A stretch of DNA of 64,000 nt. Origin: an uncultured Christensenella sp. (GTDB lineage Bacteria; Bacillota; Clostridia; Christensenellales; UBA1242). Below are positions 3,512-32,549 of the stretch, piece by piece. The DNA lies in assembly GCA_949293905.1 (NCBI GenBank), contig CASFFG010000001.1:64461-128460 (forward strand), written 5' to 3'. The first letter of the stretch is position 1; each line of letters begins with the position of its first letter. Below the pieces are notes generated by a model that was given only the letters and a program-made list of their open reading frames with translations, was not told the DNA's origin and did not search any database. The position numbers and the translations under genes were made by a program.

Positions 3512-3587
3512 TGGAGCTACTGGGCGGACTCGAACCGCCGACCTGCTGATTACGAATCAGCTGCTCTACCGACTGAGCCACAGTAGC
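3512..3587 (-). tRNA. tRNA-Thr (anticodon CGT), CCA encoded
   Basis: The reverse complement folds as a cloverleaf: GCTACTG acceptor, GGTTCGAGTCC T-arm, anticodon loop TTCGTAA. Confidence 0.9.
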
Positions 3588-5964: not shown

Positions 5965-6794
5965 TGCAAAAGAGAGAATTTGTTCTAGATAAAGATAAAG
6001 AACTTATTAAGGCAGTGATTGACGAACTGCCCTTTCTTTCGCGCTTTGAAATTGAAAAAATCCTTAAAAACAAAGATATCAAAGTCAATAATTTAAGAGT
6101 ACAATCTAATTTAAAACTGAATTCGGGCGATAAAATTACTATTTTCTATTACGAAAGGGAGCAAAAAGAGTGGTATACTTTGGTTTATGCTGATGAAAAT
6201 ATACTAATTGTAAATAAGCGCGCGGGGATTGAAGTTGTGAGCGAAACTGAACGCGATTTAGTCCATGTTTTATCTCAAAATTATACCAACATTATTCCAG
6301 TACATAGAATAGATAGAAATACGGAAGGTCTAGTCATCTTTGCGCAAAATTCCACTAGCGAAAAAGAACTTTTGTCCGCCTTTAAAACACGAAAATCTAT
6401 TGTCAAGGAATATGCACTTCTAGTTCACGGTAGAGTAGACATCTCGAAAATTAAACGCACTGTCTATTTAAAGAAGATGGACAATTTAAGCAAGGTTTGG
6501 ATTAGCGAAGTAAAGACGAGCGGATACGAACCAATCTCTACCGAATTTAGCATACTAGAATATAGGGGTGATAAAACATTGATGACAGCTCGCCTAATTA
6601 CAGGGAAAACTCATCAAATTCGTGCGCATATTGCATATTATGGCTATCCAATCGTGGGCGACCAGAAATACGGCAAAGACAATGAAAAACAAATGCACTT
6701 GACCGCAAACTATCTTGCTTTCAACTTTCCTAAGCAATCACCACTAAAATATCTAAACAGTAAAACTTTTGAAATTATTCCAACATGGATTTAA
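5964..6794 (+). CDS. RluA-family pseudouridine synthase with N-terminal S4-like domain
   Basis: Catalytic motif HRIDRNTEGLVIFA and GKTHQIRAH. Confidence 0.85.
   Translation: MQKREFVLDKDKELIKAVIDELPFLSRFEIEKILKNKDIKVNNLRVQSNLKLNSGDKITIFYYEREQKEWYTLVYADENILIVNKRAGIEVVSETERDLVHVLSQNYTNIIPVHRIDRNTEGLVIFAQNSTSEKELLSAFKTRKSIVKEYALLVHGRVDISKIKRTVYLKKMDNLSKVWISEVKTSGYEPISTEFSILEYRGDKTLMTARLITGKTHQIRAHIAYYGYPIVGDQKYGKDNEKQMHLTANYLAFNFPKQSPLKYLNSKTFEIIPTWI
6336..6349 (+). repeat. Exact copy of the 14-nt arm ATCTTTGCGCAAAA inside the rluA-family CDS
   Basis: Identical to the paired arms at 32066-32079 and 32086-32099. Encodes part of VIFAQN. Confidence 0.6.
6528..6567 (+). repeat. Direct repeat copy 1 (inside the rluA-family CDS)
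   Basis: 36 of 40 nt identical to 9916-9955, counted by eye. Confidence 0.85.
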
Positions 6795-10237: not shown

Positions 10238-10313
10238 CGGGGTGTAGCGCAGTTGGTAGCGCACGTGATTTGGGATCATGGGGCCGGGGGTTCGAGTCCC
10301 TTCACCCCGACCA
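10238..10313 (+). tRNA. tRNA-Pro (TGG)
   Basis: CGGGGTG/CACCCCG acceptor, anticodon loop TTTGGGA, GGTTCGAGTCC T-arm, CCA encoded. Confidence 0.9.
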
Positions 10314-10321
10314 TTACATAA

Positions 10322-10398
10322 GGGCCTTTAGCTCAGTTGGTTAGAGCAACCGGCTCATAACCGGTCGGTCCGCGGTTCAAGTCCGTGAAGGCCCACCA
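10322..10398 (+). tRNA. tRNA with CAT anticodon, probably tRNA-Ile2 (lysidine) rather than elongator Met
   Basis: Loop CTCATAA. The overall sequence resembles ileX-type tRNAs by recollection. CCA encoded. Confidence 0.8.
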
Positions 10399-10416
10399 GC
10401 ATAAAACTAAAATTTT

Positions 10417-10493
10417 GGCCCGATAGCTCAGTTGGTTAGAGCGCCAGCCTGTCACGCTGGAGGTCGTGGGTTCGAGCCCCATTCGGGTCGCCA
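10417..10493 (+). tRNA. tRNA-Asp (GTC)
   Basis: Anticodon loop CTGTCAC, discriminator G, CCA encoded. Confidence 0.9.
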
Positions 10494-10510
10494 TTTAGTT
10501 TATGCTATCC

Positions 10511-10586
10511 GCCTCGATAGCTCAGTCGGTAGAGCAAAGGACTGAAAATCCTTGTGTCACTGGTTCGATTCCGGTTCGAGGCACCA
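10511..10586 (+). tRNA. tRNA-Phe (GAA)
   Basis: Anticodon loop CTGAAAA, CCA encoded. Confidence 0.9.
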
Positions 10587-10671
10587 GGGAAGATTGCAGA
10601 GCGGCCAAATGCAACGGACTGTAAATCCGTCGACTTCGTCTTCGGTGGTTCGAATCCACCTCTTCCCACCA
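10587..10671 (+). tRNA. tRNA-Tyr (GTA), long variable arm
   Basis: Starts immediately after the tRNA-Phe CCA. Anticodon loop CTGTAAA. 85 nt. Confidence 0.9.
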
Positions 10672-10698
10672 ATCCTTATGGATAGGATAATTAATATT

Positions 10699-10735
10699 GC
10701 TAGTGTGGCTCAACGGTAGAGCAGCTGACTTGTAA
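10699..10735 (+). pseudogene. 5' half of tRNA-Thr(TGT), truncated after the anticodon loop
   Basis: 37 of 37 nt identical to 10846-10882. Identity stops after CTTGTAA. Confidence 0.85.
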
Positions 10736-10845
10736 GCATCATCATAAGATGAAATGAGAAAATTATGAAGATATTTAGAAGTCGTTCTAAACTATCAAAA
10801 ATTGTTGATGCTGGTTACATCGTCAACTGCTAAAAAATTAAATAT

Positions 10846-10920
10846 GCTAGTGTGGCTCAACGGTAGAGCAGCTGACTTGTAATCAGCAGGTTGGGGGTTC
10901 GATTCCCTTCACTAGCTCCA
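10846..10920 (+). tRNA. tRNA-Thr (TGT)
   Basis: Full cloverleaf, anticodon loop CTTGTAA, CCA encoded. Confidence 0.9.
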
Positions 10921-10951: not shown

Positions 10952-11045
10952 ATATTTAAAAATTTTTATATATAATTTAATAAAAATTTATAGTTATTAA
11001 ATATCAAAACTAACAGAATGTACGCTTTTGTCGCTTTATTATAAA

Positions 11046-11059
11046 TTTTTGCGCAAAAA
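11046..11059. promoter_or_regulatory. Perfect palindrome TTTTTGCGCAAAAA just upstream of the -35 box of the 11116 gene
   Basis: Shares the TTTGCGCAAA core with the recombinase-associated arms. Confidence 0.3.
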
Positions 11060-11068
11060 AATTCGGTA

Positions 11069-11115: not shown

Positions 11116-11589
11116 ATGAAACTTAAACATTATGTGCAATTTTATAAATATATTAATGGTAAAAAATATTTTAAAGTAGAAGAAATTGAATCTAGAGATG
11201 TCTCTAAATTATCAATTGATGACGATGTTTTTACACTAGTAATATTTGATAGAATGATTGACGAAACTAATTATAAAGGCAAAGTATATCCTGTAGAAAG
11301 TGAGAAACTAAACCAGGAGTTATATTATGTTGGATATTTCTATTCGCTTGAAGATATAAAAGAAATTTATGGCAAATTTATTTATGATGAATTTGTATCA
11401 AATGAATATATTGGCGAAATTGTATGTCAAGTTGGGTTTAGTACGTGTGTTAAAAAAGATCAAGTAGAAAGAAAACTTGGGCATTTAATTACTCCTCCAC
11501 ATATTAAATTTAAAGATTTAGAAGAATTAAAAGCACGCAGAGAAGAAGTTAAAAATGCAAAAGGTAGTAGTGACATAGCGGAAATATAA
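11116..11589 (+). CDS. Hypothetical protein (157 aa)
   Basis: ORF with promoter and SD. No recognisable motif. Confidence 0.6.
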   Translation: MKLKHYVQFYKYINGKKYFKVEEIESRDVSKLSIDDDVFTLVIFDRMIDETNYKGKVYPVESEKLNQELYYVGYFYSLEDIKEIYGKFIYDEFVSNEYIGEIVCQVGFSTCVKKDQVERKLGHLITPPHIKFKDLEELKARREEVKNAKGSSDIAEI

Positions 11590-23326: not shown

Positions 23327-23401
23327 AGGGGAGTGGCTCAACGGTAGAGTAGTGGTCTCCAAAACCATTGGTTGCGTGTTCGAATCGCGTCTCCCCTGCC
23401 A
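23327..23401 (+). tRNA. tRNA-Trp (CCA)
   Basis: AGGGGAG/CTCCCCT acceptor, anticodon loop CTCCAAA, CCA encoded. Confidence 0.9.
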
Positions 23402-26638: not shown

Positions 26639-27880
26639 TTAATTCTTAGTTTTGTTTAATTTATTCATAAAAATGTAAGTAAAGAGCAAATCCATAAAAA
26701 TCGTAGTCCCAGAAAGTAGTATTGAGTAGAAATTAGAATAATTTGACCAACTGGCGAAATTGTCAATACCGATAGATGTATTTAAAATGATAACGATAAT
26801 AAATAATACTACATAAAGCACTATTGATAATATTATACGCTTCTTTAAATTCAATTTTAATGGAGCGAATTCGTATTTTAATCTCAGTTTGTCCATATTA
26901 AATATTAATATAGCAGGGTAGAAGATGGAGAAACCTATTCCAAGGATTAAAACAACATAATAACTCGGGCTAGTGCCCGTAAATGATGTGATTATAGAAG
27001 ATATTATTAGAGTTAATATCATATATGCAGATGTAACTAGCGATTTTGAAACTAAATTTTTTATTGTTCGCTTAGAAGATACGTATTCAGGTACAGTTTT
27101 TAAGTCCTTATAGTCGACATATTCTATTTCATCATCTTTTTTGTTTACCTGATATTCAATCGGTTGAGTAGATGATTTATCGCTATACAATGACTTAAGT
27201 TTGGCTTTATATTCATTAGACAAGGTATGTTTTTCAGTAAACTTTGAGACCTCTTCACTACTAGCAAAATTCTCAACACTTTGTTCATTCTCATTTTTTA
27301 ACAAACTTGAATTATTTAAATTTATATCAGTTTCTGTGGCATTGTCAATGGAGTTCGACGAGAATATTTCGTTTGTAGGGAGAACACTAGGGAGAGGTGA
27401 ACTATCATTAGAGGCATTAGATTCGGCAAGAATGTCCATGATAGAAACATATTTGTCATCTTTCTTACTAGTTTCAAAATTTTCATCAAAATGATTCTCA
27501 GTTTTTGGAACAGACGAAGTAACAAATTTTTCTTCGCGTGACGCATAATCTTCATCTTTTATAGGTTCGTTTGTATCTTCGTTATCGCCCGACATTATAA
27601 GTTTTACTAATTCGTCAAAAGATGGAAGGGTAGAGACTTGTGCCTTTCCGTTTGCTGTGATTTTATAGTAATGACGTTTTCCACCAATGTCACTATCTTC
27701 CCAATACGAAGAAATAAACTTAGATTTCTCTAATTTTTTTAAAATAGTATATAAAGTTGGCTGTTTAATAATAATATGGCCGTTAGATGCAGTTTCTATT
27801 TCCTTAGTAATTTCTAAACCATATTTATCCCCATTATTTAATTGGAGTAGAATTAAAGGTATCAAATCCGCAGTTTTCAT
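26639..27880 (-). CDS. PadR-family regulator fused to a C-terminal membrane domain
   Basis: The N-terminal winged helix (GLEITKEI...QPTLYTILKKLEK...YYKITANG) is PadR-like. C-terminal TM helices. Confidence 0.75.
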   Translation of the reverse strand: MKTADLIPLILLQLNNGDKYGLEITKEIETASNGHIIIKQPTLYTILKKLEKSKFISSYWEDSDIGGKRHYYKITANGKAQVSTLPSFDELVKLIMSGDNEDTNEPIKDEDYASREEKFVTSSVPKTENHFDENFETSKKDDKYVSIMDILAESNASNDSSPLPSVLPTNEIFSSNSIDNATETDINLNNSSLLKNENEQSVENFASSEEVSKFTEKHTLSNEYKAKLKSLYSDKSSTQPIEYQVNKKDDEIEYVDYKDLKTVPEYVSSKRTIKNLVSKSLVTSAYMILTLIISSIITSFTGTSPSYYVVLILGIGFSIFYPAILIFNMDKLRLKYEFAPLKLNLKKRIILSIVLYVVLFIIVIILNTSIGIDNFASWSNYSNFYSILLSGTTIFMDLLFTYIFMNKLNKTKN

Positions 27881-28729: not shown

Positions 28730-29776
28730 CTAGTTATTATTAAGTTTTACTTTGCCCGCGACTGATTTGCGAATATCATCACTAATGGCAGCGTAGTGTT
28801 TTTTAGTAGTATTTACATCTTTATGACCAAGTACTTCTGCGACTATATAAATATCTTTAGTTTCATTATATAAATTCGTGCCGTATGTCGAGCGGAGTTT
28901 ATGCGGAGTAATATTTTTAAGCGGAGTGGCGACTTTAGCATATTTCTTTACTAAATATTCCATCGCGCGTACCATCATACGCTTTCCTTGACTAGAAATA
29001 AATAGCGCGCGTTCTTCTTTTGGTAAATTTAATGTATCTCGATATGCCAGGTACTGCTTTAATGCTTCGGCTGTTTCCTCACCAAAGTATAAAATTACTT
29101 GATTACCACCTTTTCGAGTTACTCTAAACGAATTTAGGTTAAAATTTATATCGTCAACATTAAGTCCAACACATTCACTAACACGAATACCAGTTGTGAG
29201 AAACAGTGAGAGAATAGCATTATCTCTAACCTTAAATTTTTCATTGTATTTTTTCTGGTGTTCGCTAAATCCAGATAGAGTATCGCACGAATACATTAGT
29301 TCGGTGGTCTCTTGTGGTTCAAGACGAATTATCGGCTTTTCGTGTAGTTTAGGACTTGCAACTTTACTAGCCACGTTGGCTTTAAGCATATCTTTATTGA
29401 AAAAATACTTAAAAAAGGCACGTATTGTTGAGAGTTTCCTTAGTTTCCCTCGCTCACCATTTGTAATGATTTTTCCATTTTCTTTATCGTAATAGGATAG
29501 AGATGCCATAAAACGCTCAATAGTTTGGGAATCCAAGGTGTCAATATCTGCGAGCGTTATACTTTTAATCTCACGACCAACAAAATTCGTTTCATAGGTA
29601 ACTAAATAAGAGAAAAATGTTTTTAAATCTACCGCATAATTAAGTCGAGTGAGTGGAGTAGTGGTGTCTTGTATTCCAATAAAAAATATTGAACAAAACG
29701 CAGGTAAATCGGCTAACATTTCGTTTAATTTACGCATATTATTACGGTTTCTATCCAAATAGTAATTAGATGACAT
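28730..29776 (-). CDS. Tyrosine recombinase, long (348 aa) Xer-like; possibly a single-recombinase XerS/XerH type
   Basis: Catalytic residues present: TGIRVSE (Arg), HKLRST (His/Arg), LGHKDV, KKHY (Tyr). The length and N-terminal domain resemble XerS by recollection. Confidence 0.8.
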   Translation of the reverse strand: MSSNYYLDRNRNNMRKLNEMLADLPAFCSIFFIGIQDTTTPLTRLNYAVDLKTFFSYLVTYETNFVGREIKSITLADIDTLDSQTIERFMASLSYYDKENGKIITNGERGKLRKLSTIRAFFKYFFNKDMLKANVASKVASPKLHEKPIIRLEPQETTELMYSCDTLSGFSEHQKKYNEKFKVRDNAILSLFLTTGIRVSECVGLNVDDINFNLNSFRVTRKGGNQVILYFGEETAEALKQYLAYRDTLNLPKEERALFISSQGKRMMVRAMEYLVKKYAKVATPLKNITPHKLRSTYGTNLYNETKDIYIVAEVLGHKDVNTTKKHYAAISDDIRKSVAGKVKLNNN

Positions 29777-29782
29777 AATTAT

Positions 29783-29811
29783 ATTATAATATATCTTTGC
29801 GTAAAAAACAA
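29783..29811 (-). promoter_or_regulatory. Promoter TTGTTT-17-TATAAT ending 6 nt before the recombinase ATG (leaderless); the spacer is occupied by arm a
   Basis: Counted on the minus strand. No SD. Confidence 0.5.
29793..29806 (+). repeat. Arm a: ATCTTTGCGTAAAA
   Basis: Lies 17 nt from the recombinase start codon. Followed by AA. Confidence 0.8.
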
Positions 29812-31259: not shown

Positions 31260-31273
31260 TTTTACACAAAGAT
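31260..31273 (-). repeat. Arm b: ATCTTTGTGTAAAA (one mismatch), reverse orientation
   Basis: The plus strand reads TTTTACACAAAGAT. Confidence 0.7.
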
Positions 31274-31295: not shown

Positions 31296-31493
31296 TTAGT
31301 TTAGTCCACGCTGTTTCGATATTTCATAAAGGCAAACGGTGGTGGCATTAGCGACATTTAATGAATCTATACCTTTTCGCATATTTATTTTTACTAAATG
31401 ATTGGCCTTGTCTTGCCAATATTTTGATATACCAAAAGTTTCATTCCCTATAACCAACACTGTGGGCTTTTTAAAGTCACACTCGCTAATCAT
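31296..31493 (-). pseudogene. C-terminal relic (65 codons) of a SpoU/TrmH-family RNA 2'-O-methyltransferase
   Basis: VLVIGNETFGIS...LNVANATTVCLYE matches SpoU motifs 2 and 3. The N-terminal two thirds or so of a typical family member are absent. Confidence 0.7.
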
Positions 31494-31518
31494 AATGAAT
31501 ATAACAATATAGTTAGTT

Positions 31519-31532
31519 TTTTACGCAAAGAT
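31519..31532 (-). repeat. Arm c: ATCTTTGCGTAAAA, reverse orientation
   Basis: The plus strand reads TTTTACGCAAAGAT. The in-frame stop that opens the relic ORF lies just outside it, in the flanking A-run. Confidence 0.8.
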
Positions 31533-32012
31533 GTAATTATTTGATAATAAGATAAAATGTGACATGTTTTTGAAATATTAAATGGTATAAATGATAGAAT
31601 ATAACAATAAGTATAGTAAACCTGAGAGATGATAGGGAATTTCGCAATTTATTCAAAACAACTTAAAAGGCATATCACCACAAAATGCTCTCAGGCGAAT
31701 TGATTAAAATTTAGTTAAGTAATTATTCACATGGATTTACAATTTTTTACTCAATCAATACCAATTTTATAAATGGCCTAAAATCTGCGCTGAGACAAAT
31801 TGAAATAAGTTAAAATAAGGTATTGGTCATGTAGATTTTAAAAATTAAGTTAACCGGGCAACAATCTTTAGTCAAAGTGAAATTGCATGCTGATACAATA
31901 AACTTATAAAAACAATAAATACGAAAATTTATAAAAATAAACCAAAATTTATTATGTGGACAATTAAAACTAAATCTTGTCGAATAATGTCAAACTATAT
32001 AGATTAATTTAG

Positions 32013-32050
32013 AATCTGTGGACAAAAATCGGGTTTTCCACAGATTTTTT
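32013..32050 (+). terminator. Terminator-like hairpin in the ORF-free region
   Basis: 10-bp stem AATCTGTGGA/TCCACAGATT, 14-nt loop, then TTTT. Confidence 0.45.
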
Positions 32051-32065
32051 GCTCAAAATCGTCAT

Positions 32066-32099
32066 ATCTTTGCGCAAAAGAAGAGTTTTGCGCAAAGAT
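32066..32099. other. Perfect 14-6-14 inverted-arm site ATCTTTGCGCAAAA-GAAGAG-TTTTGCGCAAAGAT; candidate recombination core (dif-like) site
   Basis: Read directly. This is the architecture of tyrosine-recombinase core sites. Confidence 0.55.
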
Positions 32100-32465
32100 G
32101 TATGTATAAAAATCTACACCACTCCGCTTTTGTCCACAAATATATTTTCTCTACCTAACTAAGATTTTAGTAACATATAGGCTCAAAATTAAGCGACAAA
32201 TTAATTCTTATATAAGTAAACTTTGTTCTTGCAATCCAAATAGCATTACAATTAAATGGAATTGTTCCAGAGCAAATAACTAAAACATTTGTTTATCAAA
32301 ACACTGATTTATGTCAACATACTAGATTAAGTTAATCTTAATATAAATTAGTTGCTATAACCAAAACCAGCAATAAATTTATCTAATTAGTCTTACTAAT
32401 GTAATTCATTGTCACGCAAATTTACTCTACACTACTCTACTGCGCTTTATATATATTTGTATTAT

Positions 32466-32479
32466 ATCTTTGCGTAAAA
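32466..32479 (+). repeat. Arm e: ATCTTTGCGTAAAA
   Basis: Lies 70 nt beyond the stop of the ynbB-like gene. Confidence 0.8.
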
Positions 32480-32549
32480 AATTCATTCTAACTTATTTCG
32501 TTAAAATGAATGTAAACTATATTACCTCGAACTAAATATTTTTAAACAA

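Follow-up and report, generated by a model that had tools for sequence, protein, structure and literature searches.

A probable dif-type recombination core linked to a single Xer-family recombinase gene in uncultured gut Clostridia

The window analysed here is a 64,000 nt stretch of DNA from an uncultured Christensenella sp., in which 1,056 bp (31494–32549) between convergent genes contain no ORF of at least 50 aa. The first-pass annotation, made from the sequence alone, had described this as an ORF-free stretch of about 1 kb, lying 2.3 kb from a long Xer-like recombinase gene, and both descriptions hold, the start of the recombinase gene being 2,290 bp from the palindrome that is the subject of this report. 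The minus-strand genes on one side of the gap are miaB, mutS, mutL, miaA, and a Met_gamma_lyase-family gene. On the other side are a 65-aa SpoU-methylase fragment and then serS on the plus strand, beyond which the minus strand carries the recombinase gene, lexA, a PadR-family gene, and two ABC-transporter genes. Running towards these ABC genes from the other direction, on the plus strand, are RNase Y, thiI, nifS, and spoVAD. The 65-aa ORF (31296–31493, minus strand) is the nearest gene to the left of the gap; it matches only the C-terminal third of SpoU/TrmH-type RNA methyltransferases and is therefore a gene fragment, and in relatives its position is taken by other small genes. The PadR-family gene (26639–27880, minus strand) encodes a 413-aa protein whose PadR domain, about 80 aa at the N-terminus, precedes a long stretch of low conservation, 35–55 % identical among relatives compared with 82–91 % for the recombinase. 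A known non-coding RNA in the gap was considered and rejected, there being no match to any Rfam family there (best E = 0.16, 14.8 bits against a gathering score of 45).

Within the gap, at 32066–32099 and without assigned strand, is the candidate recombination core ATCTTTGCGCAAAA-GAAGAG-TTTTGCGCAAAGAT, made up of a left arm (32066–32079), a 6-bp centre (32080–32085), and a right arm (32086–32099). Two perfectly inverted 14-nt arms around a 6-bp spacer, each arm with a palindromic core, had been noted previously, and on re-reading of the sequence this is indeed the arrangement, with TTTGCGCAAA inside each arm. The centre is asymmetric, GAAGAG on the plus strand and CTCTTC on the minus strand. 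This is the only 14-6-14 inverted repeat with one mismatch or fewer in the window. In 60 first-order Markov simulations of the window there were no perfect 14-6-14 sites, and sites with up to two mismatches arose 1.05 times per simulated window. The 34-bp site is therefore real and non-random, and such a site is likewise unique within each of the related loci of approximately 21 kb.

The source organism belongs to uncultured gut Clostridia labelled as Candidatus Onthoplasma or as Christensenella-like. Scanning species-representative genomes for relatives of the recombinase identified 48 loci. In about 31 genomes a 14-6-14 site is present at the same syntenic position, 2–4 kb upstream of the recombinase gene, confirming that the site is conserved in relatives. 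Linkage of site and gene extends to about 36 genomes, down to 49–54 % recombinase identity, and the same layout of two inverted 14-nt arms around a 6-bp centre is kept throughout, within the 6–11 bp that the centre of a dif-type site may span. At the distant end of this range, five relatives have diverged, near-symmetric sites with 0–2 differences between the arms. In L041 the site is ATTTATTCGTAAAA-cctgca-TTTTACGAATAGTT, 287 nt upstream of the recombinase gene; in L043 and L044 it is 185 nt and 178 nt upstream, respectively; and in L045 and L046 it is 2.6–3 kb upstream, with serS in between. Since diverged sites stay near diverged recombinase genes, the gene and the site behave as a linked module.

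Comparison of the arms in 35 genomes (30 close relatives plus the window, and the five distant relatives) shows perfect symmetry in 24. The 20 distinct site sequences show 16 double changes that are symmetric and 17 changes on one side only; the paired changes include G7T in L013 and L015, T4A in L014, C10T in many genomes, and two changes in L046. As the arms are identical or nearly identical and often co-vary, one protein species probably reads both of them. The central region is asymmetric and semi-conserved, reading CTCTTC, CACTTC, CCCTTC, GCCTTC, CAACAC, or CAATAC in the orientation of the gene.

The presumed enzyme for the site is the 348-aa Xer-family tyrosine recombinase encoded at 28730–29776 on the minus strand (Pfam Phage_integrase). 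Alignment to XerD shows all six catalytic residues to be intact: R in GIRVSE, K in TRKGGNQ, HxxR in PHKLRS, H in LGHKD, and Y in KKHYA. Within the genus the protein is 82–91 % identical, which exceeds MutS, MutL, MiaA, LexA, and most of the neighbouring products. It had been suggested that this might be a XerS-like system, a single recombinase acting on a site next to its own gene. The single recombinase with a linked site is supported, the XerS identity is not. The NCBIfam XerS model (NF003462) aligns over the full length and is the best-scoring model, but at 178.6 bits against a cutoff of 267; XerC scores 164 against 335, XerA 158 against 220, and XerD 157 against 330. With about equal scores on four models, all of them below the cutoff, the recombinase belongs to a distinct Xer lineage and cannot strictly be called XerS, XerC, or XerD. 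The closest PDB entries are XerD (1e-21), XerA (3e-16), and XerH 5jjv (2e-8).

That the enzyme falls below every NCBIfam Xer cutoff leaves some room for the site being the recombination target of another host recombinase encoded elsewhere, XerC/XerD for example, with the neighbouring gene linked to it by chance or for another purpose. This is improbable. Identical arms argue against a heterodimeric XerC/XerD, the linkage of gene and site persists in about 36 genomes and tightens to less than 300 nt in three distant relatives, and a copy of the arm is found in the promoter of this very gene. In addition, neither a dif of the Bacillus (B. subtilis) type was detected in the window, nor any paralogue of the recombinase in the window or the related loci.

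The converging gene orientation reported for the region is confirmed, genes being on the plus strand up to 23.85 kb and on the minus strand from 23.9 kb, with the exceptions of serS and the PBP1A gene. A tRNA gene (23327–23398) is positioned exactly at this orientation switch; another is at 3515–3587, and a cluster of six is at 10238–10917 on the plus strand. The switch at about 23.9 kb is 8 kb away from the palindrome. Bulk GC skew in the window stays positive as far as about 24 kb and is negative beyond about 32 kb. Motifs resembling DnaA boxes near the palindrome had raised the possibility of an origin of replication, which is rejected based on the converging genes, the positive-to-negative skew, and the absence of dnaA and dnaN from the approximately 25 annotated genes of the window.

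Taken from the window alone, GC3 skew per gene was too noisy to locate the strand switch, and orthologues from up to 40 loci were therefore pooled. The pooled coding-strand GC3 skew is −0.13 to −0.23 for the block of five genes that starts with the recombinase and ends with the ABC permease, −0.03 to −0.13 for seven flanking genes co-oriented with replication, and +0.08 for the oppositely oriented serS. This is the pattern expected if the 6-kb block from the recombinase to the ABC genes is on the lagging strand, placing the leading-strand switch near the palindrome and not at the orientation switch 8 kb off, although gene-specific effects may contribute to the separation. A terminus-type region is therefore supported by the window and the related loci together, with the position of the strand switch known to within a few kb, and the palindrome would thus have the location of a dif site, in non-coding DNA at the terminus or skew switch. 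In one relative (L017:1-12720), serS, recombinase, lexA, PadR, ABC, ABC come first and then, on the opposite strand, rnhA, the Met_gamma_lyase-family gene, miaA, and mutL, indicating that a block of about 8 kb beside the site is inverted relative to the window, or possibly an assembly artefact.

Overlooked by the first-pass annotation, the 14-nt arm also recurs outside the palindrome. Allowing up to two mismatches, there are 11 copies in the window against 1.6 expected, a number reached in none of 100 shuffles. Four solitary arms, at 29793 (plus), 31260 (minus), 31519 (minus), and 32466 (plus), are no more than 2.7 kb away from the palindrome and the recombinase gene. Two of these edge the ORF-free region with their tails outward and their ATC ends towards the palindrome: arm a (ATCTTTGCGTAAAA; 32466–32479, plus strand), about 70 nt beyond the Met_gamma_lyase-family stop codon, and arm b (ATCTTTGCGTAAAA; 31519–31532, minus strand), at the serS side. 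In nearly all relatives arm b is just beyond the serS stop codon, sometimes doubled, and equivalents of arm a are single in L002 and doubled in L019, L026, and L038. In these last three genomes the arms bounding the gap are doubled symmetrically, in the pattern −− ... +− ... ++. A degenerate extra arm, b' (ATCTTTGTGTAAAA; 31260–31273, minus strand), is in direct orientation to arm b, and the two copies (31260–31273 and 31519–31532) bracket the SpoU fragment.

Several other origins for these arms were considered. The bounding arms are oriented opposite to the product of integration and are therefore not simple relics of phage. The palindrome had been suggested to be possibly just the junction of two MITE copies, which is excluded, as the solitary arms are short conserved half-sites and not mobile elements. 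An invertible segment bounded by the inverted arms is likewise rejected, since the segment is flipped in no locus. Two dispersed arm-like matches that might have been counted as XDS-like sites are not supported, the one at 6336 encoding a conserved pseudouridine-synthase motif and the one at 11045 being without the invariant C3. The latter falls in the palindrome AATTTTTGCGCAAAAAAATT (11041–11062), directly upstream of a strong promoter-like site, TTGACA-17-TATAAT, for the ORF at 11116–11589; resembling the arm core but without C3, this palindrome may be a separate regulatory site. Variable accessory genes are present beside the solitary arms in five relatives (L015:6342-8368, L022:6174-7178, L036:8604-9926, L024:741-2218, and L016:663-1556), encoding unknown proteins of 359, 273, and 253 aa and small proteins starting MSY(N/Q/H)KLVRDKIP, which suggests a local insertion hotspot.

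The remaining solitary arm, c (ATCTTTGCGTAAAA; 29793–29806, plus strand), fills the spacer of a promoter-like site for the recombinase gene at 29783–29811 on the minus strand, with a −35 of TTGTTT (29811–29806), a −10 of TATAAT (29788–29783), and the ATG at 29776. An overlapping alternative, TTTACG-16-TATAAT, was returned by a promoter scan. At most loci the arrangement is conserved as TTGTT, TTTTACGCAAAGAT, 3–4 nt, and TATAAT. In the window and in L001 about 7 nt separate the end of the −10 from the ATG, with no recognisable ribosome-binding site, pointing to a leaderless or near-leaderless recombinase mRNA; in other relatives the leader is longer and includes a GGAGG-type site. In L011 (1374–1425) and L040 (2499–2550) the recombinase-proximal arm is flipped and abuts a promoter of canonical form, TTGACA-17-TATAAT, and is not in the promoter spacer. 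The operator position of arm c suggests autoregulation, and it probably lets the recombinase repress its own gene, making arm c a putative autoregulatory operator.

Perfectly symmetric arms are unusual for a dif site and would equally suit a dimeric regulator. The palindrome might then be mainly an operator for a dimeric transcription factor, possibly with the recombinase acting as a repressor only, the arms forming a small regulon around xer and serS with no role in dimer resolution. What speaks for this is that operators typically have perfect dyad symmetry, that solitary copies of the arm exist, and that in most genomes one of them is exactly in the recombinase promoter spacer. The palindrome itself, however, is between convergent genes in an ORF-free gap and not beside a promoter and its gene, its spacer is asymmetric and semi-conserved, and linkage to a catalytically intact recombinase persists in distant relatives. 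Furthermore, the prophage junctions described below show strand exchange at the palindrome spacer. An operator as the main function is therefore held to have only a slight chance of being correct, and a recombination core linked to the recombinase remains the preferred reading.

Around the core there are further conserved elements. Box 1 (TTGTCCACA; 32130–32138, plus strand) resembles a DnaA box and is 38 nt outside the arm in about 30 genomes, and between it and the arm the alignment shows a G-rich element (GCGGAGTGGTGTAG; 32114–32127, minus strand; consensus RGRGYAGTG). On the other side is an inverted GTGGA pair (32017–32042, without assigned strand), comprising TTGTCCACA at 32017–32025 on the minus strand and TTTTCCACA at 32034–32042 on the plus strand, and beyond this is box 4 (TTGTCCACA; 31955–31963, minus strand), at +136 from the palindrome start in the orientation of the locus. 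The DnaA-box consensus is TTATCCACA. In about 30 genomes, motifs of the TTNTCCACA or TGTGGANAA type keep constant distances from the palindrome (−38, +58, +74, and +136). Their density is 3.2 per kb close to the site, compared with 0.10 per kb elsewhere, and four of the eight box matches in the window are at the palindrome locus. The distant relatives have no GTGGA boxes. In the window the inverted pair forms a hairpin (32013–32050) followed by a T-run, but as the terminator stem of an RNA this candidate is rejected: in relatives, pairing stops at the boxes, so boxes for a protein are more likely than an RNA stem.

Evidence that DNA exchange takes place at the centre of the site comes from prophages of the Microviridae, which are present at the site in five contigs (L015, L037, L219, L220, and L221) representing four insertions in different host lineages; L086 has the same prophage as L037. 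The prophages in L219, L220, and L221 were identified by a metagenome scan with a Rep alignment. In L015 and L037 the genome-specific left arm, with the identical spacer, occurs a second time, 5.3 and 5.8 kb, respectively, from the palindrome, and is followed by unrelated sequence. The prophage genes encode an HTH repressor, a small DNA-binding protein, a Chp2-type scaffold, capsid F (E = 4e-172), a pilot protein, and a rolling-circle Rep that is unrelated to the host recombinase. Pfam and PHROGs place every annotatable ORF in one of these classes, and no recombinase or integrase was found in the prophages. These are elements without a recombinase of their own that carry a dif mimic and are flanked by a dif site and a hybrid dif site, as is the case for IMEX.

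At the Rep-proximal end a full palindrome is present in five of five prophage contigs. The left junction, on the contig in all except L219, is made up of an arm, a spacer identical to that of the host, and a degenerate arm, for example AACTTACGCAAAAT in L220, and homology stops at the boundary of spacer and right arm in four of four contigs with this junction (L015, L037, L220, and L221). The five spacers are all different and each is equal to that of the host-type site: cacttc in L015 (L013-like), caatac in L037 (no host type listed), cccttc in L219 (L012-like), ctcttc in L220 (L004/L006-like), and gccttc in L221 (L036-like). Empty sites are seen in close hosts, in L013 for L015 and in L012 for L219. 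The left junction in L220 (1–60) has a phage-type flank before the arm, spacer, and degenerate arm, with the host palindrome 5.37 kb later; it is therefore an intact attP or a tandem copy and not a host/phage junction, which suggests tandem prophages or the co-assembly of free and integrated forms. Two independent MAGs, L016 (1–100) and L018 (1–120), have contig ends 57–80 nt outside the palindrome, consistent with branching of the assembly graph, such as from a mixed population with and without prophage.

A free form of such a phage is available in GenBank. PQ007018.1, a complete circular microvirus of 5,160 nt from rodent faeces, has an attP directly past the end of its Rep gene, GTGTGGATAA-actaGGGTAGTG-tggaaagttgtctttgt-ATCTTTGCGCAAAA-cgcttc-acaatgtaaaaaaa. 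With the prophage junctions, the empty sites, and the free phage, attP, attB, attL, and attR have all been observed, and this comparative evidence supports DNA exchange at the central region in vivo. Searches of IMG/VR with the arm plus spacer, a 16-mer, the Rep protein, and the Rep alignment returned chance matches, distant microviruses without the arm, or the L037 prophage. The flanks of the phage attP in L037, L220, L221, and PQ007018.1 are unlike those of the host, yet they have GTGGA at −37 or −38, and they also have a G-rich element at the matching position (GGGTAGTG, GTGGAG). As the box is kept in an otherwise unrelated flank, it is likely to be part of the functional site and is probably needed for recombination.

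It could be argued that the prophages entered by RecA-dependent homologous recombination through a host-like stretch that they carry, the palindrome being a structural element such as a hairpin or terminator. The duplicated stretch in L015 is 66 nt and nearly identical, and the palindrome could fold as a 14-bp hairpin. However, the shared stretch in L037 and L221 is only about 26 nt, essentially the arm and spacer, and the break in homology is at the boundary of spacer and right arm at all four left junctions, with four different spacers. The phages also retain a degenerate second arm, AACTTACGCAAAAT in the case of L220, and the solitary arms, which cannot form a hairpin, are nonetheless perfectly conserved. 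There is in addition experimental precedent for Xer-dependent integration of gokushoviruses (PMC7062461). Entry by RecA is considered very improbable, the least likely of the explanations raised here, and site-specific exchange at the core by a host recombinase is preferred.

Taken with the linkage to the gene, the co-changing arms, the terminus-like behaviour of the region, and the attP of the free phage, these integrase-less prophage junctions support the original suggestion of a dif-like core, and in this uncultured clade of gut Clostridia (Candidatus Onthoplasma and Christensenellales-like MAGs) a Xer system with a single recombinase is likely to use the 34-bp site as its dif-type core. 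In the mechanism proposed, two monomers of the 348-aa recombinase would bind the two identical 14-bp arms, and strands would be exchanged at the edges of the asymmetric 6-bp centre (CTCTTC). Since the arms are identical, the centre alone gives the site its direction. On a chromosome dimer, recombination between the two copies of the site at the terminus would resolve the dimer, a reaction that FtsK or SpoIIIE normally controls. Because integrase-less phages have inserted at exactly this site in related genomes, the neighbouring recombinase very probably unlinks joined sister chromosomes there. Temperate microviruses without an integrase would use the same reaction, with an attP consisting of a perfect left arm, the host spacer, and a degenerate right arm.

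It is possible, although doubtful, that the core is the centre of a larger conserved terminus element, comprising the DnaA-box-like boxes at fixed offsets and the outward-tailed half-sites that edge the gap. If so, Xer recombination here would need help from a further DNA-binding component, which might be DnaA or an additional domain of the recombinase, and the same locus could organise the terminus, for example by unloading SMC or arresting forks. Accessory functions at the terminus are indeed suggested by the conserved flanking boxes and the solitary arms.

Single-recombinase Xer systems are known from few lineages (XerS, XerH, XerL, and archaeal XerA), and this would be one more, in spore-forming gut Clostridia, for which no such system was found described in the literature searched. 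Having identical arms and direction in the centre only, the site is a good model for how a homodimeric recombinase orders strand exchange. The prophages extend the hijacking of dif by microviruses to Firmicutes-type hosts; in a 2022 paper, microvirus prophages are listed only for Bacteroidales, Hyphomicrobiales, and Enterobacteriaceae (PMC9753089). Hosts are thereby assigned to gut microviruses of this lineage, and the pair of attP and dif is a natural recombination assay.

Among known systems, XerS/difSL is similar in having one long recombinase (348 aa here and 356 aa for XerS), a linked module of gene and site near the terminus (PMC5357621), and arms with an A/T-rich TTT-sCG-AAAA appearance, TTTGCGYAAAA compared with TTTCCGAAAA. 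However, difSL is a 31-bp asymmetric site with an 11-bp centre directly beside the gene (PMC5357621), whereas here the layout is 14-6-14 with identical arms and a 6-bp centre, the site is 2.3 kb from the gene with serS between, and there are extra solitary arms and GTGGA boxes; neither the site layout nor the sub-cutoff model score is that of XerS. Likewise, the 28-bp, 11-6-11 dif of XerC/XerD differs from this system, with its identical arms, sub-cutoff scores, and single recombinase gene in the window and loci. XerH/difH of Helicobacter and Campylobacter, XerL/dif of Legionellales, and XerA/dif of archaea share a single recombinase and a site near the terminus that is palindromic in part or in full around a 6-bp centre, often close to the gene. 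The Thermococcus dif is in a large intergenic gap between convergent genes (PMC11840125), and the Legionella XerL/dif system was, as here, revealed through the att site of a mobile element (PMC9765430). Sequence relatedness to these is low, however (E = 2e-8 for XerH 5jjv and 3e-16 for XerA), and the host phylum and arm sequences are different.

The solitary arms have a resemblance to the XDS of B. subtilis, which, as summarised in two reports, are solitary dif-like XerD-binding sites near dif that are not substrates for recombination and that unload SMC (PMC11840125, PMC11894783). It is a resemblance only, the arms here being known by sequence, position, and conservation, and they are within 0.5 kb of the dif-like core and in the recombinase promoter, whereas XDS are scattered over the B. 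subtilis terminus. The prophages most resemble IMEX, including the gokushoviruses of Enterobacteria that integrate at dif without an integrase, experimentally demonstrated in E. coli to depend on host Xer (PMC7062461), and the proviruses of Bacteroidetes, for which integration at dif via host Xer has been inferred (PMC3091885). In common are a size of about 5.2–5.8 kb, the lack of an integrase, flanks of one intact and one hybrid site, and an attP beside Rep (PMC7062461, PMC3091885). They differ in having a Clostridia host with a single recombinase instead of XerC/XerD, and in an attP that also copies the GTGGA box about 38 nt outside the core. On these comparisons the system is best described as a single-recombinase Xer/dif system, and is not XerS/difSL or XerCD/dif in the strict sense.
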